Both the position numbers and the translations under genes were made by a program. The notes beneath the pieces were generated by a model. That model saw only the letters and a list, made by a program, of their open reading frames with translations, had not been told where the DNA came from and did no database searches. This document shows, piece by piece, positions 4,127 to 31,806 of a DNA stretch of 36,426 bases. Location of the stretch: the sequence record SRR22947725_1570, one strand, 5' to 3'. Within the stretch, counting starts at the first letter, position 1; every line of letters starts with the position of its first letter.

Positions 4127-5632
4127 TTACGAGAGTTTAGTTAAAGCCGCGTTAATTCTTGCGACACTTTCTTCCACCCCAATGGCGTTAGAAACAGCAA
4201 AAACATCCGGACCACGCATAGACCCCACTAAGGCAAGCCTAAGGGGCGCCATTAGCATGCCAATACGAATTTCTTCACTTGCAGCCCACTCTTTAACTTC
4301 TGCACTTAGCGTTTCTGCATTTGCACCAGCATTTTGTTCAAGCACATTAATTACACCACGTAGTATACCTGGGGTTTCTTCTTTCCATTGTTTTCTTACA
4401 GCCTTTTCATCGTAATCTTTCGGCGCTACAAAAAAGAGACTTGCCTCATCCCAAATATCCGTAAGTAATGTAATCCGGTTTCTAATAAGAACAGACACAG
4501 CTTCTAGAGAAACGGTATTTACGGTTAGATTCTTTCTGTCTAATACCCGCTTTAGTAAGGCTGATAGCTTTGGAATAGGTAGTTGATGCGCATATTGCTG
4601 ATTAAACCACTTACAACGTTCTGGGTCAAAACGCCCTCCAGATTTTGTGATATTGTTCAAGGAAAAAGTATCTATAAGCTCTTCTATTGTAAACAACTCT
4701 TCTTCTCCCCCAGGATTCCACCCTTGAAGCGCTAAATAATTTATAAGCGCTTCAGGAATATATCCAGCCTCCTTAAATCCGATTGTTTTTTCTCCCCATT
4801 GTAGTGGAAAGACTGGAAACCCAAGCGCATCTCCATCACGCTTTGATAGCTTTCCTTTTCCTGAAGGCTTTAAGATTAATGGGACATGAGCAAATATAGG
4901 CGCCTCCCATCCAAATGCCTTATATAACAGAACATGTAATGGCATTGAAGGCAACCACTCTTCACCCCTTATAACATGTGATATTTCCATAAGATGATCA
5001 TCCACAATATTTGCAAAATGATAGGTTGGCATCCCGTCCTGTTTAACGAGTATTTTATCATCTAAAAGCGATTTATTAACCGTTATTTCACCCCGAACAG
5101 CATCGAGTAATGAAATATTTTCTTCCTCGCCCAGGGCATGTGTTTTAAAACGCACGACATAAGGGGTTTTGTTTTTAACGAGCGATTCACATTCTTTTTT
5201 ACTTAGCGTTAGACTGTTTCGCAACTCCTCTCTGTTGTTCCAGTTATATATAAAAGTCTCCCCGTGTGACTCGGCTTCTTTTCTTAGCGCCTGTAATTCA
5301 TCATGAGTATCAAAAGCAATATAAGCATTTTCGCTGCTTAAAATATCATCTATATATTTGATATACAGGTCTTTACGCTCACTTTGTCGGTATGGACCAT
5401 GTTCTTTTTCAGTATTTGGGCCTTCGTCAGGATCGATCCCCAGCCACTTCAAAGCATTTATGATGTAGTCTTCTGCGCCTTCAACATAGCGTTCTTGATC
5501 GGTGTCTTCAATGCGTAACACAAACACTCCTTTGTTCTTTTTCGCAAACAAATAGTTGTATAAAGCGGTACGCACACCACCTATATGAAGTGGCCCTGTT
5601 GGGCTGGGAGCAAAACGAACACGAACAGACAT
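4127..5632 (-). CDS. gltX: Glutamate--tRNA ligase
   Basis: RVRFAPSPTGPLHIGG, LRIEDTD, GPYRQSER, VDDHLMEISHVIRGEEW and KLSKRDG. Confidence 0.97.
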   Translation of the reverse strand: MSVRVRFAPSPTGPLHIGGVRTALYNYLFAKKNKGVFVLRIEDTDQERYVEGAEDYIINALKWLGIDPDEGPNTEKEHGPYRQSERKDLYIKYIDDILSSENAYIAFDTHDELQALRKEAESHGETFIYNWNNREELRNSLTLSKKECESLVKNKTPYVVRFKTHALGEEENISLLDAVRGEITVNKSLLDDKILVKQDGMPTYHFANIVDDHLMEISHVIRGEEWLPSMPLHVLLYKAFGWEAPIFAHVPLILKPSGKGKLSKRDGDALGFPVFPLQWGEKTIGFKEAGYIPEALINYLALQGWNPGGEEELFTIEELIDTFSLNNITKSGGRFDPERCKWFNQQYAHQLPIPKLSALLKRVLDRKNLTVNTVSLEAVSVLIRNRITLLTDIWDEASLFFVAPKDYDEKAVRKQWKEETPGILRGVINVLEQNAGANAETLSAEVKEWAASEEIRIGMLMAPLRLALVGSMRGPDVFAVSNAIGVEESVARINAALTKLS

Positions 5633-13511: not shown

Positions 13512-15007
13512 GCCTAAAACAATTTATCGCTAAAAAATGGGCAAAGCGCGCAGTTAAAGAAACTCAAATATGGGCGAATAACCCCATTGAAATGCAACAA
13601 AAAGTTTTAGAGGAATTGGTGCATCGAGCAAAAAACACGGAATTTGGAAAGGATCATGACTTTGATCATATTAACAGCTATGAGGACTTTTCAGCACGCG
13701 TTCCAATCAGTGATTATGAGGGCCTGCGCCCTTACATAGACAAAGTTGTTGCCGGAGAATCTGACATTTTGTGGCCAGACAAACCGTTGTACTTTTCAAA
13801 GACCTCAGGAACTACTTCAGGGGTAAAGTATATCCCTATCTCAAAGGAATCGATGCCAACTCATATCAAAGTAGCTCAAAACGCCCTCTTTCATTACATG
13901 CATCACTCAGGCAACACGACTTTTGTTGATGGTAAAATGATTTTTTTACAAGGCAGCCCTGTGCTATCTAAAACAAACAGCATTGACACAGGAAGGTTGT
14001 CAGGAATAGTAGCACATTACATACCGTCATACCTTCAACGCAATAGAATGCCCTCATGGCAGACGAACTGTATTGAAGATTGGGAACAGAAAGTAGACGC
14101 AATTGTTTCCGAAACAGCTGAGGAGGACATGCGGCTTATAAGCGGGATTCCTCCATGGGTAAAAATGTATTTTGAACGGTTAAAGGCAAAAACTGGAAAG
14201 TCTATTGCTGAGCTATTTCCTAATTTTTCATTATTTGTTTACGGAGGCGTAAATTATGCCCCATATAGAGGGGTTTTGGAAGAACTTGTTGGAAAAAAAA
14301 TTGACAGTGTTGAATTATACCCTGCCTCAGAAGGTTTTATTGCGTTTCAAGATCAGCTTGAAGGACCCGGAATGTTGTTGCAGCTTGATGCGGGAATTTT
14401 TTATGAGTTTATTGAAGTGGATAGGGTTTTTGAGGATAACCCGCCACGGATTTCATTAGCATCGGTAAAAAAAGGGGTCAATTATGCCCTAATCATGAGC
14501 ACCTCTGCGGGCTTATGGGGGTATAACATTGGCGATACGGTTGAGTTTGTAAGCCTAGCCCCCTATCGCATTATTGTCTCAGGCCGAATTAAACACTTTA
14601 TTTCAGCTTTTGGCGAACATGTCATTGGTAAAGAGGTGGAGCGCGCCATGGAGAAGACCTTAACGCAGCTTCAGGCAACTGTTTCCGAATTTACCGTTGC
14701 TCCCCAAGTGACACCAAAGGAAGGATTGCCCCATCATGAATGGTGGGTTGCTTTTGAACACCAACCAGCCAGCATTGCTGATTTTTCCGCAACACTTGAT
14801 GCCGAAATGCGCAAGCAAAACACCTATTATGACGACTTGGTTGCAGGAGGCGTGCTTCGCCCGTTGGTTGTTAGGGCACTCCCTGCAGACGGCTTTGAAA
14901 CATACATGAAAAGTGTTGGAAAACTTGGAGGGCAAAATAAAACCCCGCGACTAACGAATGACAGAAAGATTGCGGATACATTAATTAAATTGTTTCCTAG
15001 AAAATAA
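13508..15007 (+). CDS. GH3 auxin-responsive-promoter family protein (adenylate-forming, acyl-acid amido synthetase-like)
   Basis: KTSGTTSGVKYIP P-loop, YPASEG, YNIGDTV and GGQNKTPRL. ATGA overlap with the M23 gene. Confidence 0.88.
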   Translation: MSLKQFIAKKWAKRAVKETQIWANNPIEMQQKVLEELVHRAKNTEFGKDHDFDHINSYEDFSARVPISDYEGLRPYIDKVVAGESDILWPDKPLYFSKTSGTTSGVKYIPISKESMPTHIKVAQNALFHYMHHSGNTTFVDGKMIFLQGSPVLSKTNSIDTGRLSGIVAHYIPSYLQRNRMPSWQTNCIEDWEQKVDAIVSETAEEDMRLISGIPPWVKMYFERLKAKTGKSIAELFPNFSLFVYGGVNYAPYRGVLEELVGKKIDSVELYPASEGFIAFQDQLEGPGMLLQLDAGIFYEFIEVDRVFEDNPPRISLASVKKGVNYALIMSTSAGLWGYNIGDTVEFVSLAPYRIIVSGRIKHFISAFGEHVIGKEVERAMEKTLTQLQATVSEFTVAPQVTPKEGLPHHEWWVAFEHQPASIADFSATLDAEMRKQNTYYDDLVAGGVLRPLVVRALPADGFETYMKSVGKLGGQNKTPRLTNDRKIADTLIKLFPRK

Positions 15008-15065
15008 ATACCTTGCACCTCCGTTTTAATTGTACCAAAACAAATTGCAATAATTCCGAAGAACC

Positions 15066-16121
15066 ATGAGCACAGCGACACCTAATCAACCTGACAATAA
15101 AGAAGAAATAGACCTCGGGGTACTATTTAATGCTATTGGAAATGGTATTTCTAAGCTTTTCAATGCTATTTCAAGCACGATACTGTTTATTTTAAACAGC
15201 ATCCTCACATTTATTATTTTTGTACGCAAGAAAATAGCTTATTATGCTATTGCATGCGGAGTAGGCCTAGCAATTGGAATAGCTTTCGAAGTATTCATAC
15301 CTAAAGAATACTCAGGAACCTCGACAGTACAGCCCTATTTCGATAGCGCGCGCCAACTATACAACAATATAAATTACCTTGATGGATTGGCCGCTCAAAA
15401 AGACTCAATTCAGTTGTCCCGCTTTTTTGGCATTTCACTAAAGGAGGCAGCATCGATAAATAGCGTTGAAATTACACCCTTTATTTCCCAAATTAAGAGT
15501 AGACAGGCGTATAACAAATACGTAACAGCCTTAGACTCTATTGTTGCCGCTGAAATAACGTACGATGATTATGAAAAGCAGCGGGGTAAATTTGACAGTA
15601 AAATACACCTAATAAGGGTCAAAGCAACGGATAAAGAAATCTACCCATCTCTTTTAGATCCAATTTTAGCATCTGTTTCGGATCAAGACTATTTTAAACA
15701 ACAACAAACAACAGCATTTCAAAACCTGGAACTTAACGATTCTATCACACAAGTATCGATGGTTCAGACCGACAACTTACTCAAATTATTTGAGAAGGTT
15801 AGAATTGTTGAAGCGAATAAAGAATTTTCAAACGGCACAAACCTTTATATGTCTGACAAGGCTGAGGACAACGCAGAAATCGCATTGCTTGAGCGGAAGA
15901 TTGAACTCTCCGAACGCCTTGAAAATATCAGAAATGCAAAGCTAGAAACGATGCAAGTCGTTGATATAATTTCTCAGTTTCCTGAAGTTGGTTTTGAAGA
16001 GAAAAGCCTTTTGAAAAACAAAAAAATTCAAGGGATTGCAATAGGCTTTGTTCTATTGAGTTTGTTTTACTTGATCCTGTACATTGATCCTTTGATTGCC
16101 ACAAGAGATTCCAAAAAATGA
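15066..16121 (+). CDS. Wzz-like polysaccharide co-polymerase (chain-length regulator)
   Basis: EEIDLGVLF N-terminus, two TM helices flanking a large helical periplasmic region, first gene of the polysaccharide locus. Confidence 0.65.
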   Translation: MSTATPNQPDNKEEIDLGVLFNAIGNGISKLFNAISSTILFILNSILTFIIFVRKKIAYYAIACGVGLAIGIAFEVFIPKEYSGTSTVQPYFDSARQLYNNINYLDGLAAQKDSIQLSRFFGISLKEAASINSVEITPFISQIKSRQAYNKYVTALDSIVAAEITYDDYEKQRGKFDSKIHLIRVKATDKEIYPSLLDPILASVSDQDYFKQQQTTAFQNLELNDSITQVSMVQTDNLLKLFEKVRIVEANKEFSNGTNLYMSDKAEDNAEIALLERKIELSERLENIRNAKLETMQVVDIISQFPEVGFEEKSLLKNKKIQGIAIGFVLLSLFYLILYIDPLIATRDSKK

Positions 16122-20379: not shown

Positions 20380-21459
20380 ATGGATAAATTGGCTAAAATA
20401 TATGTTGCAGGACATAGAGGCTTAGTGGGCAGTGCGTTGTGCAAGGTCTTGCAGCAAAAAGGATATACAAACCTAATTTATCATACCCACGCTGAGTTGG
20501 ACTTGACCGATCAAAAAGCCGTTGAAGCATTCTTTGCTAAAGAAAAGCCAGAATATGTCTTTCTCGCTGCAGCAAAAGTAGGCGGTATAGTTGCCAACAA
20601 CACGTATAGGGCAGATTTCATTTATCAAAATATGATGATTCAAAACAACGTGATTCATCAAAGTTATGTACATGGCGTAAAGAAGCTGTTGTTTTTGGGA
20701 AGTACGTGTATTTATCCAAAAGAATGCTCACAACCCATGCGTGAAGACGCCTTATTAACAGGCCCGTTGGAATATACGAACGAGCCATACGCCATTGCCA
20801 AAATAGCAGGCATTAAAATGTGTGAAAGCTATAATGTACAGTACGGCACGAATTTTATTTCCGTGATGCCTACAAATTTGTATGGGCCAAACGATAATTT
20901 TGATTTAGAGACATCGCATGTATTACCAGCCTTACTACGCAAAATGATCTTAGGGAAGTATTTACAAAACAATGACCTTGATGCTGTTAAATCCGACCTA
21001 GAAAAGAGACCCATAGAAGGCATTGACCACACAGCTTCTGAGGAGCAAATCTTGAATGCCCTAAGTAAATACGGAGTTAGAAGAAATAATGAAACGGTGG
21101 AAGTTGAAATATGGGGCACAGGCGCGCCGATGCGCGAGTTTTTATACAGCGAAGACATGGCAGATGCTTGTGTGCACATCATGCAAAGAGTTGACTTTAA
21201 GGACACCTATGACAACAGCCAAAAAGAAGTGCGCAATACACATATTAACATTGGAACAGGAAAAGAGAATTCGATTAAAGAACTAGCCGAAACGATTCAA
21301 GAAATCGTTGGGTTTAAAGGCAAGCTGTATTTTAACACTTCAAAACCTGATGGAACCATGCGGAAGTTGACCGAGGTTTCAAAGCTTATGGATTTTGACT
21401 GGAAGGCTACATTTCAATTAAAACAAGGGATAGAAAAGGAATTAAAACAATATAAATGA
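20380..21459 (+). CDS. fcl: GDP-L-fucose synthase
   Basis: [62 protein letters not shown] and KPDGTMRK. Confidence 0.96.
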
Positions 21460-22124
21460 TTAAAGTAGCTGCATTATTGCCAATGAAAGGCATTTCTGAG
21501 AGGGTACCAGGGAAAAACTTAAAATTTTTTAATGGAAAGCCTTTATATTATTGGGTTTTGAACACACTTTTGAGTTCTGAAAAGATTTCAACAGTTTACA
21601 TCAATACAGATTGCGAAAAAATCACACAGGATGTGATGTATAATTTTAAAGAAAGAGTTTGCATAATCAATAGACCTAAAGAGCTTCAAGGGAATTATGT
21701 TTCTATGAATAAAATTATTGAACACGACATTTCAAAAATTGACAGTGTTTATTTTTTACAAACGCACAGCACGAACCCGTTATTAACAAAAAAGTCATTA
21801 GAAAATGCAATAGAAAAATATTTTGAAAATTTAGATGAAGGGAAATCGGACAGTTTGTTTACAGTGACTAAAGTTCAAAAACGGTTTTACACTTCTGACT
21901 TTAAACCGCTCAATCACGACCCAACTATGTTGGTAACCCAGCATTTAGAACCTATTTTTGAGGAAAACTCATGTTTGTATCTTTTCTCAAGAGACTCTTT
22001 TTTTCTAGCAAACAATAGAATCGGAAAAAACCCAGCGATGTTTCAAATAAGTCAACACGAAGCCATAGACATTGACACCCCAGAGGATTTTGCAATAGCT
22101 GAATCAATAATTAAAGAAGCGTAA
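21456..22124 (+). CDS. Acylneuraminate/ulosonate cytidylyltransferase family protein (NeuA/KdsB-like)
   Basis: [17 protein letters not shown] (variant of IPARxGSKRxxxKN), STNPLL, ENSCLY and DIDTPEDF. Confidence 0.88.
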
Positions 22125-22125
22125 T

Positions 22126-22914
22126 ATGAATACATTTAACCATAGGTCTAGTCTTTTAAAATCGAAAGTGACCTCCAAACAACTAACATTTGGTTCTTGG
22201 GTAACCATTCCACATCAATCTATAATAGAAATTTTATCATCGGCAGGTTTTGAGTGGCTTGTGCTTGACTTGGAACATTCTGCTATTGATTTTCAAAAAA
22301 CACAAGAAATGATGGGGCATATTCAAGGTCAGGGCATGCAGGGGTTGGTAAGGGTGTCTTCAAACGACCCAGTTGTAATTAAAAGATCAATGGATATTGG
22401 CGCTGATGGAGTTATAATTCCAATGGTTTTAAACCAAGATGAAGCAAAAAAAGCCGTTGATGCTGTCCGCTATCCGCCTTTGGGAAGTCGCGGGGTAGGT
22501 CTTTCTAGGGCACAACATTATGGAACAGGTTTTCTTTCTTATAATGAATGGGTGAATAATCAATCTGTGGTAATTGTTCAAATAGAACACATTGATGCAG
22601 TCAACAATTTAGAACCTATACTTGAAGTCGATGGAGTTGACGGCATAATTGTTGGTCCCTATGATTTATCAGCATCATTAGGGAAGCCCGGAAAGTTTGA
22701 TGATGCAGAGATTATAGATGCTTTAAAACGTATAGAAGAAGTATCTTCTAGATATAATAAATCATTGGGGTATCATGTGATAAACCCAAGCCACCATGAT
22801 GTAATGTCAAAGGTTAATCAAGAATACAATTTTATTGCGTTTAGTTTGGACTTCTTCTTTTTAGGGGATAAAGTAAGGGGCGAAATGCATAACTTAAGAC
22901 AAAAACTTAAGTAA
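22126..22914 (+). CDS. HpcH/HpaI-family class II pyruvate aldolase (GarL/RhmA-like)
   Basis: LDLEHS, LVRV, YPPLGSRGVG, VQIE and GPYDLSASLG; the catalytic His and Arg and the metal-binding Glu and Asp appear intact. Confidence 0.92.
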   Translation: MNTFNHRSSLLKSKVTSKQLTFGSWVTIPHQSIIEILSSAGFEWLVLDLEHSAIDFQKTQEMMGHIQGQGMQGLVRVSSNDPVVIKRSMDIGADGVIIPMVLNQDEAKKAVDAVRYPPLGSRGVGLSRAQHYGTGFLSYNEWVNNQSVVIVQIEHIDAVNNLEPILEVDGVDGIIVGPYDLSASLGKPGKFDDAEIIDALKRIEEVSSRYNKSLGYHVINPSHHDVMSKVNQEYNFIAFSLDFFFLGDKVRGEMHNLRQKLK

Positions 22915-22916
22915 TT

Positions 22917-23777
22917 ATGAAAATAGTAGTTTTTGGCGGCGCAGGATTTTTAGGTTCATATGTGGTAGAGGAATTAATAAAAAGAGGCTACGAGGTAACC
23001 GTTGCCGACTTATTTCAACATACTGCTGAAGCATCATTTAAAAAATGTGATATTATTAATGAAAATGAAGTTAAAAGTATATTCACTCAACAATATGATG
23101 TTGTTTACAATTTTGCAGGGTTTTCGTCTTTAGATTTAGCTAATCAACACCCAAAAAAAGTATTAGAACTCAATGTTATGGGAAATCTTAACATACTTAC
23201 CCACATAAAACCCTCTAAGATAAAGCGTTTTGTTTTTGCATCCAGTGCATATGCAATGAGCGATAAGGGAACCTTTTATGGAATCAGTAAATTGACTTCT
23301 GAAAAAGTAATCGAGCAATTTGGGAAGACACAGAACCTACCGTTTACAATTCTTCGTTATGGCTCTGTTTATTCAGATAAAAACTTTCCCAACAATTATA
23401 TCTATAATTTAATTGCGGAAGCAATAAAAACTAACAAAATTATTCATGGTGGAGATGGCTTAGAATTGCGCGAATATATTCATGCTGAAGACGCAGCAAA
23501 TTTGTCATGTGATATTATTGAAGATGATTCACACAAAGGTGAAAACTATATTATTACAGGGAACACAAAGATTAAACGAATTGACTTATTCCATATGATT
23601 AATGAGATTCTTAACAACAAACTACAAATCGATTGCCTAGATAATTCCTACAAAAATCATTATAAATTAACACCGTACTCTTTTCAGCCAACAACATGCA
23701 AAAAGCTTACGCCGAATCCTCATATAGAATTAGGACAAGGATTGTTAAGGTGTGTCCAAAAAATAAGCGATGAATAG
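22917..23777 (+). CDS. NAD-dependent epimerase/dehydratase (extended SDR)
   Basis: FGGAGFLGS, FASS, YGISK (YxxxK), LRYGSVY and REYIHAED. Confidence 0.88.
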   Translation: MKIVVFGGAGFLGSYVVEELIKRGYEVTVADLFQHTAEASFKKCDIINENEVKSIFTQQYDVVYNFAGFSSLDLANQHPKKVLELNVMGNLNILTHIKPSKIKRFVFASSAYAMSDKGTFYGISKLTSEKVIEQFGKTQNLPFTILRYGSVYSDKNFPNNYIYNLIAEAIKTNKIIHGGDGLELREYIHAEDAANLSCDIIEDDSHKGENYIITGNTKIKRIDLFHMINEILNNKLQIDCLDNSYKNHYKLTPYSFQPTTCKKLTPNPHIELGQGLLRCVQKISDE

Positions 23778-24444
23778 AATTTCTTACCCAAAAAGTCAAT
23801 TTCCACATTCTGCAGCAAACCATGTAGCGAATCAGCTTACAAAAAGTCTTAAGAAAAAGAACAGTATAAATGTTGCCCTATCGGGAGGGAATTCACCATT
23901 ACCTGTTTACGAAGCACTTAAAGACTTTTCAATCGACTGGAAACGCATTTCATTTTTTCTAGTTGATGAAAGGGCGGTTCCTGTAACTGATTCTCAAAAT
24001 AACTTTGGAAACATTAATAAGGCAATTTTTGAGCACATCCCTAGTAAAGCATACTGTGTTCACGATGGCACAAAACCTCCTGAAATAAGCGCTGAAGAAT
24101 ATGAGGGGAATCTTTTAAAAAACATTCCAAAAGCTAACGGCCACGTTCAGTTTGATCTTATTTTACTCGGTATGGGATTAGACGGGCATATTGCGTCTCT
24201 TTTCCCAAAAAATAAAGCACTTAATGAAGTGTCAAAAGCTGTAGTACACACCTACGTTAATCAATTAAATTCCACCAGAATATCGTTGACGTTGCCAATT
24301 ATTAATAATGCTTTTAGAAGAATACTTTTAATTGACTCTAAAAAAGAAAAGCTGTTTAAGACTAACGCCTGGAAAACATTGCCAATTGGTCTTGTCGAAA
24401 CTGAAAATATGGATAGAATAATTAGCGAGCTAGATGAAAATTAA
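23770..24444 (+). CDS. pgl: 6-phosphogluconolactonase family protein (DevB/Pgl-type)
   Basis: ALSGGNSP, LVDERAVP, LLGMGLDGHIASLFP and RISLTLP. Confidence 0.85.
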   Translation: MNRISYPKSQFPHSAANHVANQLTKSLKKKNSINVALSGGNSPLPVYEALKDFSIDWKRISFFLVDERAVPVTDSQNNFGNINKAIFEHIPSKAYCVHDGTKPPEISAEEYEGNLLKNIPKANGHVQFDLILLGMGLDGHIASLFPKNKALNEVSKAVVHTYVNQLNSTRISLTLPIINNAFRRILLIDSKKEKLFKTNAWKTLPIGLVETENMDRIISELDEN

Positions 24445-25084
24445 ATCTCTTTTTTTTGATTTTGACGGAGTAATTGCGGATTCAGTTGGATGCAAAACAG
24501 AAGCCTTCAGAGACATCTACCTTCCTTACGGGGAAGAAATTGCCAGTAAAGTTGTAGACCACCATTTGAAAAATGGTGGAATATCCAGGTTTGAAAAGTT
24601 TGTTACTTATCACGCTGACTTTTTAGGAAAGACAATCAGTCAAAATGAACTTAATAACCTTTGTGAAAAATTTTCAAGTTTAGTTATTGATAAGGTAATT
24701 GAAAGCAAGGAGATAAACGGATTTTCAGAGTTTATTAAACTTCACGGCAAAAAATTCAATAAATGGATAATAACTGGAACCCCTACAACTGAAATAATTA
24801 ATATTCTAAAACGACGTAACATGGATGACATTTTTGTTGACGCTTTCGGATCACCAGAAAAAAAAGGGTATTGGACAGAACAGATTATTAAAAATCATAA
24901 TTTAAATAGAGACGAAATCGTATTTCTAGGTGATGCAAAAGCAGACTTTGAAGCTTCCCAAGCCTCAGGGTTAAAATTTATTTTGCACAGAAGTGAAGCT
25001 AGTGGAAAGTATTTTGACGACAAGCAATTTACAGAAATGAATGATTATCATGATTTATGGAATATCCTAAACAATTTTAAATGA
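24434..25084 (+). CDS. HAD-superfamily phosphatase
   Basis: FDFDGVIADS (motif I), ITGTP (motif II), Lys in SPEKK (motif III) and LGDAKAD (motif IV). Confidence 0.9.
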   Translation: MKIKSLFFDFDGVIADSVGCKTEAFRDIYLPYGEEIASKVVDHHLKNGGISRFEKFVTYHADFLGKTISQNELNNLCEKFSSLVIDKVIESKEINGFSEFIKLHGKKFNKWIITGTPTTEIINILKRRNMDDIFVDAFGSPEKKGYWTEQIIKNHNLNRDEIVFLGDAKADFEASQASGLKFILHRSEASGKYFDDKQFTEMNDYHDLWNILNNFK

Positions 25085-26025
25085 TTAACGTACTTGTGAC
25101 TACGACGTCCTTTCAGGACACTCCAGGAATGCACCATGATCTGTTAGAAAGGCAAGGGTGGAAACTGAAGATACTAAGAGGGCCATTACCTGAAAAAATA
25201 TTGTTGCCAATTGTTGATCAATATGACGCCGTAATTTGTGGTGATGACGACTATACCGAAGCGGTTTTAAAAAAAGGCAAAAAAGGCAAACTAAAGGCAA
25301 TCTCTAAATATGGCGTGGGACTTGACAAGATTGACCTTAAAGCAGCAAAAAAACTTGGAATAACAGTTACAAATTGTCCTGCAGTAAACCCCCCTTCAGT
25401 TTCCGAACACGTAATCGCCCTTCTTTTATCTTTTGCAAGAAACATTCCAATTCATGCCCAAAATTTTAACAATTCCAAATGGGAAAGGATGACAGGAATA
25501 GAAATTATGGGTAAAACTGCTGGAATAATTGGACTCGGCGCTATTGGGCGTGAGTTGTGTCCAAAACTCCATGGGCTTGGTCTAAAAGTCATGGCTTTTG
25601 ACCTCAACCCTGACAAAGCATTTACGGACAAGCACAAGTACCTTGAGGTTGTAGATGCTTTAGAAAATATTTTCAAGGAGTCAGATATAATTACACTACA
25701 TACCCCCCTAAATGACAACACGAAGCACATCATTAGCCGTGAAGTTATTTCTAAAACGCTCAAAAAAAAGCCAATAATTATCAATACGGCACGGGGAGAG
25801 CTTGTTGACAGCCATGCAATTGTCGATGGTATAAAGGAAGGTAAAATAAAAGGGTACTTGGCAGATGTACTTAAAGAAGAACCGTTATCAAAAAACGAAC
25901 CTCTTTTAGCGTGTGAAAATGTCATTATAACACCACACGTAGGATCCAGAACCTTCGAAAGTGTGCAGAGGCAAGGTACAATGGCGGTGAATAATTTGAT
26001 TGAGTTGGTAGAAAAATGGACATAA
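25081..26025 (+). CDS. D-isomer-specific 2-hydroxyacid dehydrogenase (SerA-like, no ACT domain)
   Basis: KYGVGLDKID, GIIGLGAIG, TLHTPL, INTARG, DVLKEEP and ITPHVGS. Confidence 0.9.
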   Translation: MINVLVTTTSFQDTPGMHHDLLERQGWKLKILRGPLPEKILLPIVDQYDAVICGDDDYTEAVLKKGKKGKLKAISKYGVGLDKIDLKAAKKLGITVTNCPAVNPPSVSEHVIALLLSFARNIPIHAQNFNNSKWERMTGIEIMGKTAGIIGLGAIGRELCPKLHGLGLKVMAFDLNPDKAFTDKHKYLEVVDALENIFKESDIITLHTPLNDNTKHIISREVISKTLKKKPIIINTARGELVDSHAIVDGIKEGKIKGYLADVLKEEPLSKNEPLLACENVIITPHVGSRTFESVQRQGTMAVNNLIELVEKWT

Positions 26026-27797
26026 GTGAGAGCTATAGCAAGTATACGTGCTGGATTTTCCCTATCATAGGGCTTTATCCAATACTTAAACTTAATTATT
26101 CCACGCCACTTCTAATCCTTCTCTTTCTACACATAGTTTTAAAGCAAAGACCTCAAATAACGACAAGTTCTGTTAGAAGTGTAGCCCTACTTACGGCATT
26201 TTTAGCTTATTTTTTGATTACGTTATCTTATTCTAATAATTTTACGCAAGGTATAAACGAGTGGATTAGACTCATGCCACTTCTTTTAATCCCTCCCTTT
26301 ATTTTCTTTTGGAATTTTTCAATATCCCCTAGCGAAAAAACAAACTTTATTAAAATTTTTGTTTTTAGTAATATAGTTTTTTGTTTTTTGCTGCTATATA
26401 TCTTGGGTTTTTTTGACTCAATTAAAGGAAGCTTAGCGGAAGAGATAAGCGCACGTTTTTTATCTGATTATGCACAAAAAATCATTCATTCAAAAGACAA
26501 CCCATTGTTTGGATGGTTGTTTGTTAATAAGGCTTACTTCTCGATGAATACTATCATGGCTCTTTTTCTGGTTTTTCAACTTCATATACAAACACCCATT
26601 AAGCTTCTAATTTCATCATTATTTGTGTTTGTTATTCTTTACTCTTTTTCTGTGCCTAACGTTTTTGTACTTGTTTTGATAAGCATTTTTGTTGGAACTA
26701 AGCTGTGGTCAATTGGCACGATTCTACAAAAGGCATCACTTTTCTTAGTAGCTGTAGGGCTAATTTTAACAATAGTTTATAAACTCAATACCCGTGACAT
26801 CAATAAGGCAGTTGTTTTTGCTAATGAATTTTTTGAGGCAGATCAAAGTGAAGGGAACGACCCTAGAAAAGCAATTTACCATTCCGCACTAGAAATATAT
26901 CGCGAATACCCGATGGGCGTTGGAATTGGTGCTACACAAACAAAATTAGATGAAAAGTATAAAAACCGAATTGATGGCGACGCCAATCAGCTATTATTCA
27001 CGGAAGAATTAAATGATGATTACTGGTTTAAAAACAATGTAATTGTAGAAAAAAACACATTAATCTCGCCTGACGATATTGAAAATGCAGAGATTATTGC
27101 TACCGTTCCCGGAGGTAGTCCAAAAGGCTTTTCATTATCAAAGTCTATACAAGTTAATTCCTCAGAACAATATACGTTATCTGCCTACTTAAAGCCTATT
27201 GGTAAGGTTGTTGGGATTCTTCGTTTTGGTGACTTGTCAAGCGGAAGGGTAAATATTAATTTTGCCCAAAACAACATTTCTTTTAAAGGGAGCGAAATCA
27301 CGGATGTATTATTAATGGAAGAGCCCGACGGCTGGTACAGGGTGGCAATTACTACTGCCTTAGACAGCGGAAACCACAATTTGCTTTTAGGAATAACAAA
27401 CACTACAGAGGGCTACAACATGACTGCAACCAAAGCGCTCAAAATGGGCGCCTGGGGGATACAACTTAATAAAGGACAAGAGGTCTTGCCATATTCACGA
27501 AGCACGAAAGACTTGTATGATTATGCGTACAGAAATAGGCTAAACACACACAATTACTTTTTACACGTCTTGATGATTGGTGGACCCGTAGCGTTATTTT
27601 TGTTTCTGGTTTATTTAGGCAAAATGGCCACAGATTTTTATAAAACTAATAATACAATCTCATTAGTTTTTTTTGGACTACTGGTTATTAACATGTTAAG
27701 CGAAAATATTTTGTTCAGACACGCAGGGATTTTTTTTGTAACAGTTTTTATGTTATTTAGCTACGCTCACAGACCTTACTCACAAACACAACATTAA
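26016..27797 (+). CDS. O-antigen ligase/Wzy_C family membrane protein with a large inserted soluble domain
   Basis: Multiple TM helices; DPRKAIY...PMGVGIG and NTHNYFL...GG motifs, separated by a ~170-aa hydrophilic insert. Confidence 0.78.
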   Translation: MDISESYSKYTCWIFPIIGLYPILKLNYSTPLLILLFLHIVLKQRPQITTSSVRSVALLTAFLAYFLITLSYSNNFTQGINEWIRLMPLLLIPPFIFFWNFSISPSEKTNFIKIFVFSNIVFCFLLLYILGFFDSIKGSLAEEISARFLSDYAQKIIHSKDNPLFGWLFVNKAYFSMNTIMALFLVFQLHIQTPIKLLISSLFVFVILYSFSVPNVFVLVLISIFVGTKLWSIGTILQKASLFLVAVGLILTIVYKLNTRDINKAVVFANEFFEADQSEGNDPRKAIYHSALEIYREYPMGVGIGATQTKLDEKYKNRIDGDANQLLFTEELNDDYWFKNNVIVEKNTLISPDDIENAEIIATVPGGSPKGFSLSKSIQVNSSEQYTLSAYLKPIGKVVGILRFGDLSSGRVNINFAQNNISFKGSEITDVLLMEEPDGWYRVAITTALDSGNHNLLLGITNTTEGYNMTATKALKMGAWGIQLNKGQEVLPYSRSTKDLYDYAYRNRLNTHNYFLHVLMIGGPVALFLFLVYLGKMATDFYKTNNTISLVFFGLLVINMLSENILFRHAGIFFVTVFMLFSYAHRPYSQTQH

Positions 27798-27830
27798 AAT
27801 CAAGGAAATTTAATTATAAAACTACGTAAC

Positions 27831-28598
27831 ATGGTGAAAGATTATTTGAAGAGATTATTTTATCGGGTTCAACAACTTTTTTTTGGAATAGGAGAAATTA
27901 ATAAGGGTAATCAGGGTAAAATAAACTTTATTGATGTGGGCTCTGTTGGAAGGTTACCCCAGCCATGGCTGTCAAACTCTCATTTCATTAAAAATGCACT
28001 TCTTTTTGAACCGAATGAATCACAAAACTTAAAAGATAACATCATAAAGTTAGATGTTGCCTTATGGAAAAATGAGGAAGAAAAGGACTTTCATGTGTAT
28101 AAAAACTCACACGGCTCATCTCTTTTTTTACAAAACTATGAGTTTGTAGAAAATAAATTTGACGAATTAAACACAAAGGGTAATAAAAAATTAAACATGT
28201 CATGGCATAAACGTAGTAAGCGGGTTAAAACAATAAAATTAAAATGTAAAACACTTGATAAGGTTTTAGAAAGACATAACCCAAGAGACATCCCTTTCCA
28301 CTTTTTAAAGGTTGATGCTCAAGGTGCAGAATATGAGATATTATTGGGGGCAAAAAACTTTATTAATTCAGACAATTGTATCGGAATGCAGCTAGAATTA
28401 TTTAACATTCCAATGTATAAAGGAATTAAGCTTAAAAAAGAGGTAATTGACTTTCTCGATAATGCAGGGTACAAAATTTTAAAAGAACTCCCCTCCCATG
28501 GGTCTTTTTTGTCGCAAAATGACGTTGTATTTATTAAGAAAGATATAAAGGATCAATTTATTCCTTTAGCGGAACTTATTCATAGGGTTTATAAATAA
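27831..28598 (+). CDS. FkbM family methyltransferase
   Basis: FIDVGSVG, LFEP, GSSLF, TLDKVL and FLKVDAQGAEYEILLG. Confidence 0.85.
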   Translation: MVKDYLKRLFYRVQQLFFGIGEINKGNQGKINFIDVGSVGRLPQPWLSNSHFIKNALLFEPNESQNLKDNIIKLDVALWKNEEEKDFHVYKNSHGSSLFLQNYEFVENKFDELNTKGNKKLNMSWHKRSKRVKTIKLKCKTLDKVLERHNPRDIPFHFLKVDAQGAEYEILLGAKNFINSDNCIGMQLELFNIPMYKGIKLKKEVIDFLDNAGYKILKELPSHGSFLSQNDVVFIKKDIKDQFIPLAELIHRVYK

Positions 28599-28647
28599 CT
28601 TTTTAAAATGAAGCTTTTAAATAAGTCGCGTTAAGAAAAAATCAAGC

Positions 28648-29883
28648 ATGAATAAAATCTTTGTAGTTTTAATGCGTAACATCGGATTACACAATTCCAC
28701 TGGCAAAATTTCCGGAAAGGCTCTTTATCTTATCTACACAAGTTTGGCAAGTATGTCACTATCTGTATCTGAGTTTGCCTTATTCGTTATTTTCTGGACA
28801 ACGCTCAGGTTTTTTATTTATCTAGGATCTAACAACTATTATATCTCTTTTTTTTCAGCAGTAAGAGAAAAGTTGGTTGCAAAAAAATGGCATAATAAAG
28901 TATTTTCAACGATTCTAATAACTGGTGTTGCCTTTTCTGCGCTATCATTTGTCTTCTTTTTTGTTTTTTTTAAGTCTTATCATGTGAGCTTATTAGGCGC
29001 TTTAGCAGTTATTAGCGGTATAATACTTAAATGTTTAGCAGAGTTTTCGAAAGCAAGCCATAGTGTGTTTCTTGCCGTCATATCAGAAGACTTGACACTT
29101 AATGCTGTTTTATTAGGCTCGTTCCTTTTTTTACCTGAAAACCCAACAATTCTATTTTTTTCGCAATGGGCGATTATAGCATATGTAATAGCAATGATTG
29201 TTTCTTATTTCGGAATTGTAAGAAAATTTGGTTTAGAATGGTTTCCAAGAATTCATATACCGTTTAACTTTTTTTCTTATTTCAAAGCGGGGCTTAGCCT
29301 TACAATTTACAGAGGACATGAGATGACAGCGTTTTTCTTAATACGCACCGTGGGCAAGTATTTTTACGGAGAATACTTTGTTGCCTCAACACACATATTA
29401 TTACAGTTTTACAACATCGTTAAATTATATGTTTTGGGAACGATTTCAGGATATCAGTCAAAAATCACTTTGGAGCGTGTTACAAAATGGACCATGAAAA
29501 CAGTTCAAGAATTGTATTTTTTAGTTTTAAAAAGAGCATCTCTATTATTTGCAGCAGGAATTTTTCTCGGATTTGCACTTAAAACACACATCATTATACT
29601 CTTTTTCCCAAACTACTTAGAAATTACACCCAAAGTGAACATCATGTTAATTATCGGCATAATTACGTTTGTTTTTGAACCATTACATTACATTTTTATT
29701 TACAACAATTTGATTCAAAACAAAAAAATGATAAACATATTTCTAATAGTTGTTCTTTTAATCCTATCGTCTTTAAGTATTCTTAATATAAATTCATTCA
29801 TCTGGCTTTGCGCGATGATTACCTACCCCTTAATTGTTCAATTTTTATTTGTTTTACAAAAAGCCAAATCACTTAAGCAATGA
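28648..29883 (+). CDS. Probable Wzx-type polysaccharide flippase
   Basis: 411 aa, about 12 hydrophobic segments, LSVSEFALF after TM1 (like Wzx LxxxxYG), located within the polysaccharide locus. Confidence 0.6.
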   Translation: MNKIFVVLMRNIGLHNSTGKISGKALYLIYTSLASMSLSVSEFALFVIFWTTLRFFIYLGSNNYYISFFSAVREKLVAKKWHNKVFSTILITGVAFSALSFVFFFVFFKSYHVSLLGALAVISGIILKCLAEFSKASHSVFLAVISEDLTLNAVLLGSFLFLPENPTILFFSQWAIIAYVIAMIVSYFGIVRKFGLEWFPRIHIPFNFFSYFKAGLSLTIYRGHEMTAFFLIRTVGKYFYGEYFVASTHILLQFYNIVKLYVLGTISGYQSKITLERVTKWTMKTVQELYFLVLKRASLLFAAGIFLGFALKTHIIILFFPNYLEITPKVNIMLIIGIITFVFEPLHYIFIYNNLIQNKKMINIFLIVVLLILSSLSILNINSFIWLCAMITYPLIVQFLFVLQKAKSLKQ

Positions 29884-31061
29884 GTTATTTGTATTTTCTC
29901 TTTTTGCGTGTTATTTCTTATCTAGAGGCGGAGAATCAAATTATTATGTTTGCTGTTTTTTTAGCATTAATGGTATTTAGCTTAAACAACCTAGTACCAA
30001 AGAAATTGGATAAAAAAACAGCAGTGGTTTTTTTAAATGCATCTATAATTTTCACTACTGTTATAGTTCACACTTTAATTTCATCATCTGAAATTATCCT
30101 TAGGGATATAACCGTATTGATTCTTTACTTAATATGGTTTATTTATGTAACGCTGAAATTCCGTAAAAAAACCACAAACGAAGCGTTACTTTTTCTACTC
30201 ATTTCATTTTCACTTTATAATATCACTAATTATGTGCTATTTGAAATGTATTATTATGACGCTAAATTTGGGTACAACCAAACACTTTCATATTTCAATA
30301 TACTAGACTACTATGCTGTTTATCCCTTATCTTCTGGAAGAAATGTAAATTCCTCACAAATTGGGCTTATTAGCATCTTGGCAATGTACTTTTTCAAAAT
30401 TGAAAGCGGATACTTCAAAAAAATGTTGTTCTTAGTTGTTTCTCTTGCTCACATTTATTTTTTAGTACTGGCAGACACTAGGATTGCAATTGTATTAACA
30501 TTGTTTTTTACCACCACTCTTTTTATTGATTCAAGTAAAATTATCAGCTTAATTAAGGCTTATTGGAAGTTAGCACTTATTTCTATATTTATATTTATTG
30601 CTATTTTTTATCTGTCCTCCGTATTTGATTTTTTAAAGCGCGATGGCGAGTTAGTTTCTGACAATCTAAACAGGATAGAAATTTGGACAGCAGCCTTTCA
30701 AGTTATTTTTGATGATCTTAAATTATTTTTCGGCCATGGGCTACACGGTTTTGGAAAAAACTTCCCCCCAGATTTGATGCCTTATTTTTTAGACCAAAAA
30801 CTACAAACAACCCATAACGCACTTCTTCAATACACTGTTGATTTTGGTATCATAGGGCTTGGAATTTTTATATTTATTTTTGCGAATCTTTTGACCAGTT
30901 CGCTAAGAATAAAAGAGCGTATAATTTTTGTGTTACTTATAGCAACATTTTTTTACGGCATTACTGAATCAATTCCTACATTTTATTCTTTTGAGCCTAC
31001 TTTATTATTTTTATCTTTAGCAGCAATATTATTTTTAAAAAATGAAAGAGAAAACGGCTAA
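29880..31061 (+). CDS. Wzy polymerase / O-antigen ligase family protein
   Basis: Polytopic; ADTR, NRIEIW, FFGHG and THNALLQ...FGIIG (Wzy_C-type motifs). Confidence 0.75.
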   Translation: MSYLYFLFLRVISYLEAENQIIMFAVFLALMVFSLNNLVPKKLDKKTAVVFLNASIIFTTVIVHTLISSSEIILRDITVLILYLIWFIYVTLKFRKKTTNEALLFLLISFSLYNITNYVLFEMYYYDAKFGYNQTLSYFNILDYYAVYPLSSGRNVNSSQIGLISILAMYFFKIESGYFKKMLFLVVSLAHIYFLVLADTRIAIVLTLFFTTTLFIDSSKIISLIKAYWKLALISIFIFIAIFYLSSVFDFLKRDGELVSDNLNRIEIWTAAFQVIFDDLKLFFGHGLHGFGKNFPPDLMPYFLDQKLQTTHNALLQYTVDFGIIGLGIFIFIFANLLTSSLRIKERIIFVLLIATFFYGITESIPTFYSFEPTLLFLSLAAILFLKNERENG

Positions 31062-31806
31062 TGCTCTAAGAGTTATTACCAGACCTATTAGAGGGTTGAT
31101 AGATTTTATTTTTTTTAAATTATATTTTAGCTTAAAAAACAACTATGATATTCTTACTCCATTCAAAAACCAAGATTTATTGATTGTTGGGAATGGTCCG
31201 AGTTTAAAGAAAACTCCGTTGTCAGACATTAATATGGTTTCAATTGGAATGAATAAGATTAATTTACTTTTTGAGTCTACCAAGTGGAGACCCGACATAA
31301 TAACGTGTGTAAATGGGTTAGTTATAAAACAAAATCTTACATTTTTTAACTCGACAGAAACCCCCCTAGTGCTTCCTGTTAAGGCATTTTATTTAGGAGT
31401 TAAGCCAAGACCAAACATCATTTATGTTTTTTTAAAAAAATCAAAAAGGTTTTCTAAGAATATCCAATCACTCTCTGAAGGATGCACAGTCACTTACACA
31501 GCTTTACAAATCTCAGCATATTTAACCCCAAAATCTGTAAATATTGTTGGTGTTGATCACAACTTTACTAAATCAGAAGGCAAGCCATATGAAATAAAAA
31601 AGTTTAAAGGAAATGACGACAATCATTTTCATCCAAATTATTTTAAAGGACAATTCTGGGGTGTGCCAGATTTAGAACAAAGCGAAATTCTATTCCAAAA
31701 AGCTAAACAGTATTTTGATGATCAACAAATTCCATCTACAGACTACACCATTGAAGGGAAGCTAAATATATTTGATAAAGGTCAGATTAAAGAAATCCTT
31801 GACTAA
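31042..31806 (+). CDS. DUF115/Maf-like protein, putative CMP-ulosonate (sialyltransferase-like) glycosyltransferase
   Basis: LIVGNGPSL, GMNKI, TVTYTALQ, NIVGVDHNF and NHFHPNYF, which parallel Cst-II IIAGNGPSL...IYLSGIDFY. Confidence 0.7.
   Translation: MKEKTANALRVITRPIRGLIDFIFFKLYFSLKNNYDILTPFKNQDLLIVGNGPSLKKTPLSDINMVSIGMNKINLLFESTKWRPDIITCVNGLVIKQNLTFFNSTETPLVLPVKAFYLGVKPRPNIIYVFLKKSKRFSKNIQSLSEGCTVTYTALQISAYLTPKSVNIVGVDHNFTKSEGKPYEIKKFKGNDDNHFHPNYFKGQFWGVPDLEQSEILFQKAKQYFDDQQIPSTDYTIEGKLNIFDKGQIKEILD

Follow-up and report, generated by a model that had tools for sequence, protein, structure and literature searches.

A conserved glycan-locus gene cassette that probably encodes a NeuB- and KdsA-independent route to a CMP-activated 2-ulosonic acid

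Six contiguous genes at positions 21456-26025 of sequence record SRR22947725_1570, a stretch of 36,426 nucleotides that is called the window in its full length, very likely encode a pathway to a 2-ulosonic acid activated with cytidine monophosphate (CMP) that works independently of the synthases NeuB and KdsA, the sugar being passed to a surface glycan by a DUF115-type enzyme. The genes code for a cytidylyltransferase, a class II aldolase of the HpcH/HpaI family, an extended short-chain dehydrogenase/reductase (SDR), a 6-phosphogluconolactonase-family hydrolase (PGL), a haloacid dehalogenase (HAD) phosphatase and a D-2-hydroxyacid dehydrogenase (2HADH). For the chemistry we tentatively favour a mechanism, read from sequence and quite possibly correct, in which the 2HADH would install the keto group and the aldolase would work on a hydroxypyruvate-type C3-C4 bond.

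To our knowledge, all characterised routes to CMP-linked keto sugar acids, that is 3-deoxy-octulosonic acid (Kdo), sialic acids, pseudaminic acid (Pse), legionaminic acid (Leg) and 3-deoxy-nonulosonic acid (Kdn), begin with a synthase that depends on phosphoenolpyruvate (PEP). Genome surveys would miss the cassette because they look for this synthase. If our interpretation is true, the cassette would stand for a new class of acidic sugars in surface glycans and for new enzymes, namely a class II aldolase that works biosynthetically, a dehydrogenase that installs the keto group and a CMP-transferase of divergent sequence, and would improve the rule by which such sugars are predicted from genomes. 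Direct testing is feasible, as the cassette occurs in cultured marine strains; cultured carriers include Winogradskyella tangerina M1309, Maribacter chungangensis CCUG 61948 and Aquimarina hainanensis KCTC 42423.

The six-gene cassette and its enzymes

All six genes (Table 1) lie on the plus strand. The cytidylyltransferase and aldolase genes are separated by a single nucleotide and the aldolase and SDR genes by two, while overlaps of 8, 11 and 4 nucleotides join SDR to lactonase, lactonase to HAD and HAD to 2HADH. The edges are as tight: the upstream fcl gene overlaps the cytidylyltransferase gene by 4 nucleotides and the 2HADH gene overlaps the next gene by 10. The six genes are translationally coupled, to each other and to the glycan genes around them. 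An earlier reading of the letters without database searches (the sequence-only reading) had listed six contiguous genes of these families, overlapping or 1-2 nucleotides apart, with the same coordinates, and both the open reading frames (ORFs) and the Pfam assignments agree with it.

There were 38 ORFs of at least 120 aa in the window, of which 35 were scanned with Pfam and NCBIfam profiles; the remaining three run antisense within genes. At a threshold of E ≤ 1e-3, NeuB, DAHP_synth_1/KdsA, a NeuC-type epimerase, an aminotransferase and an acetyltransferase were not found among these 35 ORFs, as the sequence-only reading had held, and neither was a SIS domain; this covers the window, and a synthase may be encoded elsewhere in its genome. 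The lactonase alone passed a curated NCBIfam equivalog cut-off. The other five proteins are superfamily members that scored below every named equivalog.

The cytidylyltransferase belongs to the CTP_transf_3 superfamily, and it fell below the equivalog models of KdsB (TIGR00466, 19.5 bits against a cut-off of 155.2) and PseF (TIGR03584, 80.4 bits against 205.7); it could not be placed with NeuA, PseF or LegF. By these scores it is distant from KdsB, NeuA and PseF. Its closest solved relatives are CMP-N-acetylneuraminate (CMP-Neu5Ac) synthetases (E 6e-12), and it carries an N-terminal glycine-rich loop, which we take to be the cytidylyltransferase motif. That it might be a housekeeping KdsB was considered and rejected, as a separate and stronger CTP_transf_3/KdsB-like gene (149-187 bits) is present in four of five relatives' genomes.

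The aldolase is a clear HpcH/HpaI family member that reached none of the named equivalogs, with 176.4 bits for HpaI (cut-off 368.8), 168.5 for GarL (406.75; GarL scores ranged from 168 to 175) and 133.6 for RhmA (441). In an alignment with HpaI and GarL, its residues H51, R76, E154 and D180 fall on the His, Arg, Glu and Asp of those enzymes, of which Glu and Asp are presumably metal ligands and Arg and His catalytic; the family assignment of the sequence-only reading is upheld. The window aldolase has 4043 homologues, the best 120 of them at 59-99% identity, and is part of a large separate family. Structures named hydroxyketoacid aldolase are also among its homologues. The sole longer homologue found, a 651-aa metagenome protein (P0121), has some 400 extra N-terminal residues; we made no use of it as a fused form, the extra part giving only a sub-threshold match to Capsule_synth (KpsC/KpsS; 17 bits against 20).

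The extended SDR has a UDP-hexose 4-epimerase (4zrm, E 2e-19) as its best solved relative, and the putative lactonase passed the 6-phosphogluconolactonase model TIGR01198 with 158.8 bits against a cut-off of 124.45. The best named model for the HAD protein was phosphoglycolate phosphatase, at 38.9 bits and under its cut-off. It is of type IA (TIGR01549, 25.9 bits against 23.3) and not of the KdsC-type HAD-IIIA (23.3 against 44.6). The 2HADH can be assigned only to the D-2-hydroxyacid dehydrogenase superfamily: with phosphoglycerate dehydrogenase (PGDH) as its best solved relative (1wwk, E 1e-54), it scored 226.6 bits against the PGDH equivalog TIGR01327, whose cut-off is 454.

Table 1. Features of the cassette and of the genes downstream, in window coordinates
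Feature	Position	Strand	Profile evidence
Cytidylyltransferase, CMP-ulosonate synthetase family, type A	21456..22124	+	PF02348 CTP_transf_3, 81 bits (gathering score 22.6; residues 5-211)
HpcH/HpaI class II metal-dependent 2-keto-acid aldolase	22126..22914	+	PF03328 HpcH_HpaI, 110.7 bits (cut-off 25)
Extended SDR, nearest nucleotide-sugar 4-epimerases/4,6-dehydratases	22917..23777	+	PF01370 Epimerase, 135.3 bits
6-Phosphogluconolactonase-family hydrolase (lactonase slot)	23770..24444	+	Glucosamine_iso/6PGL, 168.6 bits
HAD-IA phosphatase	24434..25084	+	HAD_2, 49.6 bits
2HADH, short, PGDH-like	25081..26025	+	PF02826 2-Hacid_dh_C, 175.3 bits
Downstream block: 593-aa Wzy_C-like protein, 411-aa protein with no family, 393-aa Wzy polymerase (FkbM gene listed apart)	26016..31061	+	
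FkbM-family methyltransferase	27831..28598	+	PF05050, 60 bits
DUF115/MptE-like protein	31042..31806	+	PF01973, 43.9 bits

Distribution of the cassette and its constant partners

Relatives of the window aldolase were collected with one genome per species, which gave at least 579 of them. The best 80 loci were kept, and genes were counted in the 52 loci (window included) whose sequence reaches 4 kb or more upstream of the aldolase gene and 6 kb or more downstream. Scoring a gene as present required a tblastn match within 9 kb with E ≤ 1e-8 over 50% or more of the query, and the ORFs of the loci were called by a simple longest-ORF rule. Many of the genomes are incomplete metagenome-assembled genomes, and the genome samples, here and below, are draws rather than censuses. 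The loci kept came from Flavobacteriaceae and other Bacteroidota, Chloroflexota (including Dehalococcoidia), Nitrospirota, Omnitrophota, Planctomycetota, Nitrosomonas, candidate phyla and archaea.

A CTP_transf_3 gene accompanies the aldolase in 51 of the 52 loci: 29 have type A, the divergent kind of the window, 28 have the KdsB-like type B, and 6 have both. The 2HADH gene is present in 48 loci, and the extended SDR and the HAD gene in 36 each. A five-gene set was found in 32/52 and the full set of six in 8/52. Lactonase-type hydrolases occur in 25 loci, PGL in 10 and a PF04199 'cyclase' hydrolase in 15, never together, and at L016 and at L144-L146 the PF04199 protein takes the PGL slot between SDR and HAD. 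Defined as an HpcH aldolase, a CTP_transf_3 protein and a 2HADH encoded within 9 kb in a glycan locus, a definition that the window fits, the cassette is a widespread conserved unit. The claim that the aldolase travels through glycan loci with its own cytidylyltransferase of the ulosonate-activating family thus stands.

Some loci have a second architecture in which a GFO-family oxidoreductase, a GmhA-like SIS protein, an adh_short SDR and an AroB-related phospholyase stand in place of the SDR and HAD genes. The AroB-related protein, a 'putative sugar phosphate phospholyase (cyclizing)' by TIGR04425 (419 bits against 400), replaces the HAD phosphatase and may act on a heptulosonate 7-phosphate comparable to 3-deoxy-arabino-heptulosonate 7-phosphate (DAHP). 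This variant is seen at L043, with the phospholyase at 14447-15535, and at its relatives L028, L039, L050 and L134-L140; its GFO enzyme is inositol-dehydrogenase-like. Composite loci also exist (L130-L133, genomes G603 and G504). Genes for a cytidylyltransferase, a 2HADH and a DUF115 protein each occur twice in them, a cytidylyltransferase-SDR-PGL-HAD-2HADH block being inserted in a GFO/SIS/adh_short/AroB-like variant locus, and the sole aldolase present is divergent (37-38% identity).

A second survey was anchored on the cytidylyltransferase. It covered 301 and 401 sampled genomes (class and phylum of one relative), with about 18 kb fetched around each orthologue. Orthologues of the window enzyme, at 40-57% identity, were found in 23 of the sampled genomes; other family members reached at most 37%. 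An HpcH aldolase lies nearby in 13 of the 23, eight have a compact cassette with no aldolase gene, and two orthologues are orphans. The aldolase-less cassette consists of a family 2 glycosyltransferase, in some cases a hydrolase of the metallo-beta-lactamase (MBL) or PF04199 cyclase family, the cytidylyltransferase, the 2HADH and an adh_short SDR that is closest to glucose/aldose 1-dehydrogenases; a DUF115 gene follows in 7/8. An HpcH gene was not found anywhere in nine of the ten genomes concerned (seven of the eight with a cassette, and both with orphans), and the tenth, G036, gave only a weak match of 37.7 bits. A strong NeuB was not found in five of the eight cassette genomes. The 2HADH, on the other hand, is present in 21 of the 22 orthologue loci that could be evaluated, 12/12 with the aldolase and 9/10 without it. 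The constant partner of the window-type cytidylyltransferase clade is the 2HADH rather than the aldolase on which the sequence-only reading had based its pathway.

The aldolase-less cassettes stand at L108, L109, L111, L113, L137, L141, L142 and L143, in eight Bacteroidota genomes. Another locus with no aldolase gene is on plasmid pAge77 of Thalassovita gelatinovora (L148), which has the trio of a cytidylyltransferase of 48% identity, a 2HADH and GalE, and also encodes a gluconolactonase of the SMP-30 family and an XylB-like sugar 1-dehydrogenase (280 bits). There, kdsB and kdsA adjoin the XylB-like dehydrogenase and SMP-30 genes, and three MptE-like/DUF115 genes are present, one coding for about 1580 aa. 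Four hydrolase folds alternate at cassette-type loci, PGL, PF04199 cyclase, MBL and SMP-30, and these families include known lactonases.

The link between cytidylyltransferase and 2HADH goes as far as fusion. A single 583-aa protein at L021 (6160-7911, plus strand) has a CTP_transf_3-like N-terminal domain fused to a 2HADH, and fusions of this kind make up 31 protein clusters (P0122-P0152), 30 of them of 539-610 aa, from Bacteroidota, Ignavibacteriales, Deltaproteobacteria and one Hodarchaeota archaeon.

The genomes of relatives were also searched for the known synthases. NeuB was not found in four of five genomes of cassette-bearing relatives, and the fifth has it on another contig. Five non-Bacteroidota genomes with a cassette gave no KdsA (TIGR01362) above its cut-off. 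NeuB genes are present in at least four of five non-Bacteroidota genomes with a type B cytidylyltransferase; the coordinates in four of the five put NeuB and the cassette roughly 2 to 14 kb apart, so that 'no synthase nearby' fails for some members of the wider family. The sequence-only reading had suggested looking for co-occurrence with DUF115 genes in loci lacking neuB. DUF115 homologues lie close to the cassette in 12/52 aldolase loci; the lack of neuB holds for four of the five relatives of the window and breaks down in the non-Bacteroidota loci with NeuB nearby. At L061 a Pse/Leg-type gene set stands beside the cassette and has a second cytidylyltransferase of its own.

Proposed pathway and alternative explanations

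In the mechanism that we favour, the lactonase would turn 6-phosphogluconolactone into 6-phosphogluconate, and the PGDH-like 2HADH would oxidise C2 of this phosphorylated polyhydroxy acid to create the alpha-keto-acid head, 3-phosphoglycerate being an alternative substrate; the product would be 2-keto-6-phosphogluconate or (phospho)hydroxypyruvate. The HpcH aldolase would act at C3-C4 of a 2-keto-3-hydroxy acid, either by adding an enolate of the hydroxypyruvate type to a phosphorylated aldehyde, for example glyceraldehyde-3-phosphate, or by resetting the stereochemistry via retro-aldol and aldol steps. The HAD phosphatase would take off the terminal phosphate, the cytidylyltransferase would make the CMP-sugar and the GalE-like SDR would epimerise or otherwise edit it; FkbM enzymes may methylate the sugar, and the DUF115 protein would transfer it. 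The product would be a CMP-2-keto-aldonic acid with a 3-hydroxyl group, not a 3-deoxy sugar. We infer every substrate, the order of the steps and the product from the sequences.

We prefer this 2HADH-centred mechanism to a pure pyruvate-aldolase scheme because it alone employs the 2HADH, the lactonase slot, the fusions and the aldolase-less relatives. With the 2HADH as the constant partner and the aldolase not, the product may be a 2-keto-aldonic (3-hydroxy) acid and the donor perhaps not pyruvate. The simplest reading of the aldolase-less cassettes would be a path from aldose to lactone, aldonate, 2-keto-aldonate and CMP-sugar, with oxidation as the sole evident source of the keto acid. The enzymes resemble those of oxidative sugar-acid routes (XylB/XylC-type dehydrogenase with lactonase, 6-phosphogluconolactonase, and 2-ketogluconate or 2-ketogluconate-6-phosphate reductases reversed), which share the families of the SDR sugar 1-dehydrogenase, the lactonase (PGL, SMP-30 or MBL) and the 2HADH. 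Unlike those routes, cassette-type loci pair them with a CMP-transferase and glycan genes, where their direction would be biosynthetic and a 2-keto-aldonate their end point; no description of such a use was found in the searched literature. The short PGDH-like dehydrogenase next to a small HAD phosphatase also recalls SerA and SerB and could make hydroxypyruvate from 3-phosphoglycerate, although the cassette has no SerC aminotransferase and the PGDH score is about half of the cut-off.

Precedents for parts of the chemistry are on hand. De Berardinis in 2017 and Marsden in 2019 are said to have found that HpcH aldolases accept hydroxypyruvate as nucleophile, which the hydroxyketoacid aldolase structures among the homologues also suggest, and the Escherichia coli K3 antigen reportedly places a 2-hexulosonic acid that is not 3-deoxy, 4-deoxy-2-hexulosonic acid, in a capsule. 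K3 was considered as a chemical anchor and no link to the cassette was made, since the K3 locus is, according to the part of the source available to us, genetically undetermined as yet (PMC10433991). One E. coli plasmid match was set aside as well: it has a NeuB-type synthase and a transferase of only 32% identity. Possibly, bacteria and archaea have a third general route to CMP keto sugar acids, in which a PGDH-like 2HADH, in some cases fused to the cytidylyltransferase, would oxidise C2 of an aldonic acid or (phospho)glycerate and a class II aldolase would extend or re-set the chain via the hydroxypyruvate enolate, giving 3-hydroxy-2-ulosonic acids as unrecognised building blocks of glycans.

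Several points weigh against the 2HADH-centred mechanism. We know of no natural biosynthetic hydroxypyruvate aldolase, pyruvate being the usual donor of the HpcH family, and of no characterised precedent for a CMP-transferase acting on a 3-hydroxy-2-ulosonic acid; to have the aldolase epimerise the sugar or exchange its chain is an ad hoc assumption. No lactonase-like gene is present in 27 of the 52 aldolase loci. PGDH is the top-scoring model for all cassette 2HADHs, those in phosphorylated contexts as well as those in unphosphorylated ones, and this likeness therefore says little about their substrate. In the cytidylyltransferase tree, the aldolase-less copies fall mostly outside the aldolase-linked clade, so that the two kinds of cassette may make different sugars; a product class shared by both is neither supported nor excluded by the tree. 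The aldolase gene is tightly associated with that of the cytidylyltransferase, one nucleotide away in the window and adjacent in most loci, which fits a direct pair of synthase and activator. Lastly, a HAD or AroB-related phospholyase gene is present in all 12 aldolase loci that could be evaluated and in none of the ten aldolase-less ones, and phosphate genes that track the aldolase point to a KdsA/KdsC logic with a sugar-phosphate acceptor.

The last two points fit the model of the sequence-only reading. There, the HpcH aldolase would replace KdsA or NeuB by joining pyruvate to an aldose phosphate or other aldehyde, giving a 3-deoxy-2-ulosonate phosphate; the HAD protein would act like KdsC and the cytidylyltransferase like KdsB, with the SDR, 2HADH and lactonase feeding or tailoring the sugar. 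This scheme, with pyruvate as donor and a 3-deoxy acid as product, is the strongest competitor, and we regard it as somewhat less probable than the favoured mechanism. The retention of the catalytic residues of pyruvate aldolases speaks for it, as do the failure to find NeuB in four of five relatives' genomes and the GmhA-like SIS isomerase of the variant loci, which recalls KdsD or GmhA feeding an aldose phosphate. With these variant loci included, the parallel to the CMP-Kdo pathway (KdsD, KdsA, KdsC, KdsB) is considerable: a sugar phosphate leads to a keto acid, from which a HAD enzyme removes the phosphate and which a CTP_transf_3 enzyme activates. Unlike that pathway, the cassette lacks a PEP-dependent synthase and has a 2HADH, a lactonase and an aldolase in addition, the window lacks a SIS isomerase, the HAD phosphatase is of type IA, the score for KdsB is very low and relatives keep a separate canonical KdsB-like gene. 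As stated, with pyruvate as donor and a 3-deoxy product, the model leaves the 2HADH (48/52 loci, and fused in 31 clusters) and the lactonase-type hydrolases without a role, and orthologous cytidylyltransferases work without an aldolase in 10 of 23 genomes.

The synthases found near some cassettes raise another alternative, namely that a keto acid supplied from outside the cassette, for example Kdo by way of the housekeeping KdsA or a nonulosonic acid by way of a NeuB-type synthase, is edited and then re-activated by the dedicated cytidylyltransferase, the aldolase and dehydrogenases editing the sugar or providing a side chain. It agrees with the NeuB genes in the type B non-Bacteroidota genomes, with the Pse/Leg-type set at L061, with the kdsA and kdsB genes that border those of the sugar dehydrogenase and lactonase on pAge77, and with one cytidylyltransferase orthologue that adjoins a WaaA-like Kdo transferase. 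It is nevertheless improbable, as the window has no synthase, NeuB was lacking in four of five relatives with the window-type cassette, a neighbouring NeuB pathway owns a second cytidylyltransferase (L061), and neither lactonase nor aldolase has an obvious role in tailoring Kdo or nonulosonic acids. The resemblance to the nonulosonic pathways (NeuC/NeuB/NeuA, Pse, Leg, Kdn) is likewise partial: the cytidylyltransferase is nearest to CMP-Neu5Ac synthetases and a DUF115 gene comes along, but the window lacks NeuB, NeuC, aminotransferase and acetyltransferase, and the PseF score is far below its cut-off. Maf-type genes accompany the Pse and Leg pathways.

The genes upstream suggest yet another product. 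With rmlBADC, gmd and fcl directly before the cassette, the aldolase could add pyruvate to the NDP-4-keto-6-deoxyhexose made by RmlB or Gmd and form a shewanellose-type branched-chain sugar, and the remaining genes would serve a separate pathway. Laurent in 2020 reportedly found that ketones can be acceptors for class II pyruvate aldolases, and the overlap of fcl with the cytidylyltransferase gene and the recurrence of Gmd and Fcl near related cassettes (L108, L143, L133 and L135) fit such a sugar. Most of the 52 loci, however, have no rml or gmd gene beside the cassette, the steady partners of the aldolase are the cytidylyltransferase and the 2HADH, and the chemistry requires no CMP-transferase, which leaves this explanation very improbable. 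A catabolic function, in which a GarL/RhmA-type oxidative breakdown of sugar acids would have come to lie in a polysaccharide locus by chance, has the least to recommend it and we give it hardly any credence. Sugar dehydrogenase, lactonase and HpcH aldolase do co-occur in non-phosphorylative sugar catabolism, and the closest named families of the aldolase, the class II pyruvate aldolases HpaI, GarL and RhmA/YfaU, with which it shares the fold family and the His/Arg/Glu/Asp active site, are catabolic. The window aldolase, however, scores at about half of their equivalog cut-offs or less and stands in a context of glycan biosynthesis; a dehydratase, kinase, transporter and regulator are all absent, the genes are coupled to glycan genes, a CMP-transferase is present in nearly all of the loci, and the usual neighbours are DUF115, Wzy, glycosyltransferase and methyltransferase genes.

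A published description of the cassette's gene set was not found in the full-text literature, preprint supplements and subscription journals lying outside its coverage, and this is in line with the view of the sequence-only reading that no such pathway has been characterised. The part of the SugarBase preprint available to us, which describes new CMP-linked ulosonic acids in Magnetospirillum, never mentions an aldolase.

Neighbouring genes and further observations

The window resembles a stretch of marine Bacteroidota chromosome, with housekeeping genes (GlnRS, GluRS, MnmG, Pgk, DUF4837 and DUF2490) followed by one long polysaccharide operon on the same strand. The operon runs rmlB, rmlA, rmlC, rmlD, gmd, fcl and the six-gene cassette, and continues with two Wzy-like genes, two FkbM methyltransferase genes, DUF115, a WcaI-like glycosyltransferase gene, ugd and a further SDR gene. 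The DUF115/MptE-like protein is the probable transferase for the CMP-sugar, its family being one that we take to transfer CMP-nonulosonic acids. O-methylation of the cassette sugar is a possible function of the FkbM methyltransferase listed in Table 1, and FkbM genes sit inside the cassette at three loci (L001, L004 and L005). Frequent companions of the cassette are methyltransferase, DUF386/YhcH and DUF115 genes. Those of the DUF386/YhcH family, which is presumably linked to keto sugar acids, adjoin the cytidylyltransferase gene in relatives.

The same three downstream proteins, of 593, 411 and 393 aa, follow the cassette in five loci, window included. The 593-aa membrane protein (26016-27797, plus strand), conserved directly after the cassette in the five loci, has a Wzy_C/O-antigen-ligase domain, and its residues 323-493 match the 'phage head spike fiber' domain NF048003 (54.5 bits against a cut-off of 36). 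Neither the 411-aa protein (28648-29883, plus strand) nor a 351-aa protein encoded at 15066-16121 (plus strand) gave a Pfam or NCBIfam match even at E 0.01.

In a locus from Dehalococcoidia (L033, 8759-12260), the cassette is followed by genes for LicD, a cytidylyltransferase-PEP mutase fusion, a thiamine-pyrophosphate-dependent decarboxylase and an iron alcohol dehydrogenase; these downstream genes are a pathway for phosphonate decoration within the same glycan locus. Among the housekeeping genes of the window, two class I tRNA synthetases of the Glu/Gln type, a 666-aa GlnRS-like protein (517-2517, plus strand) and a 501-aa GluRS-like protein (4127-5632, minus strand), are encoded on opposite strands, 1.6 kb apart.

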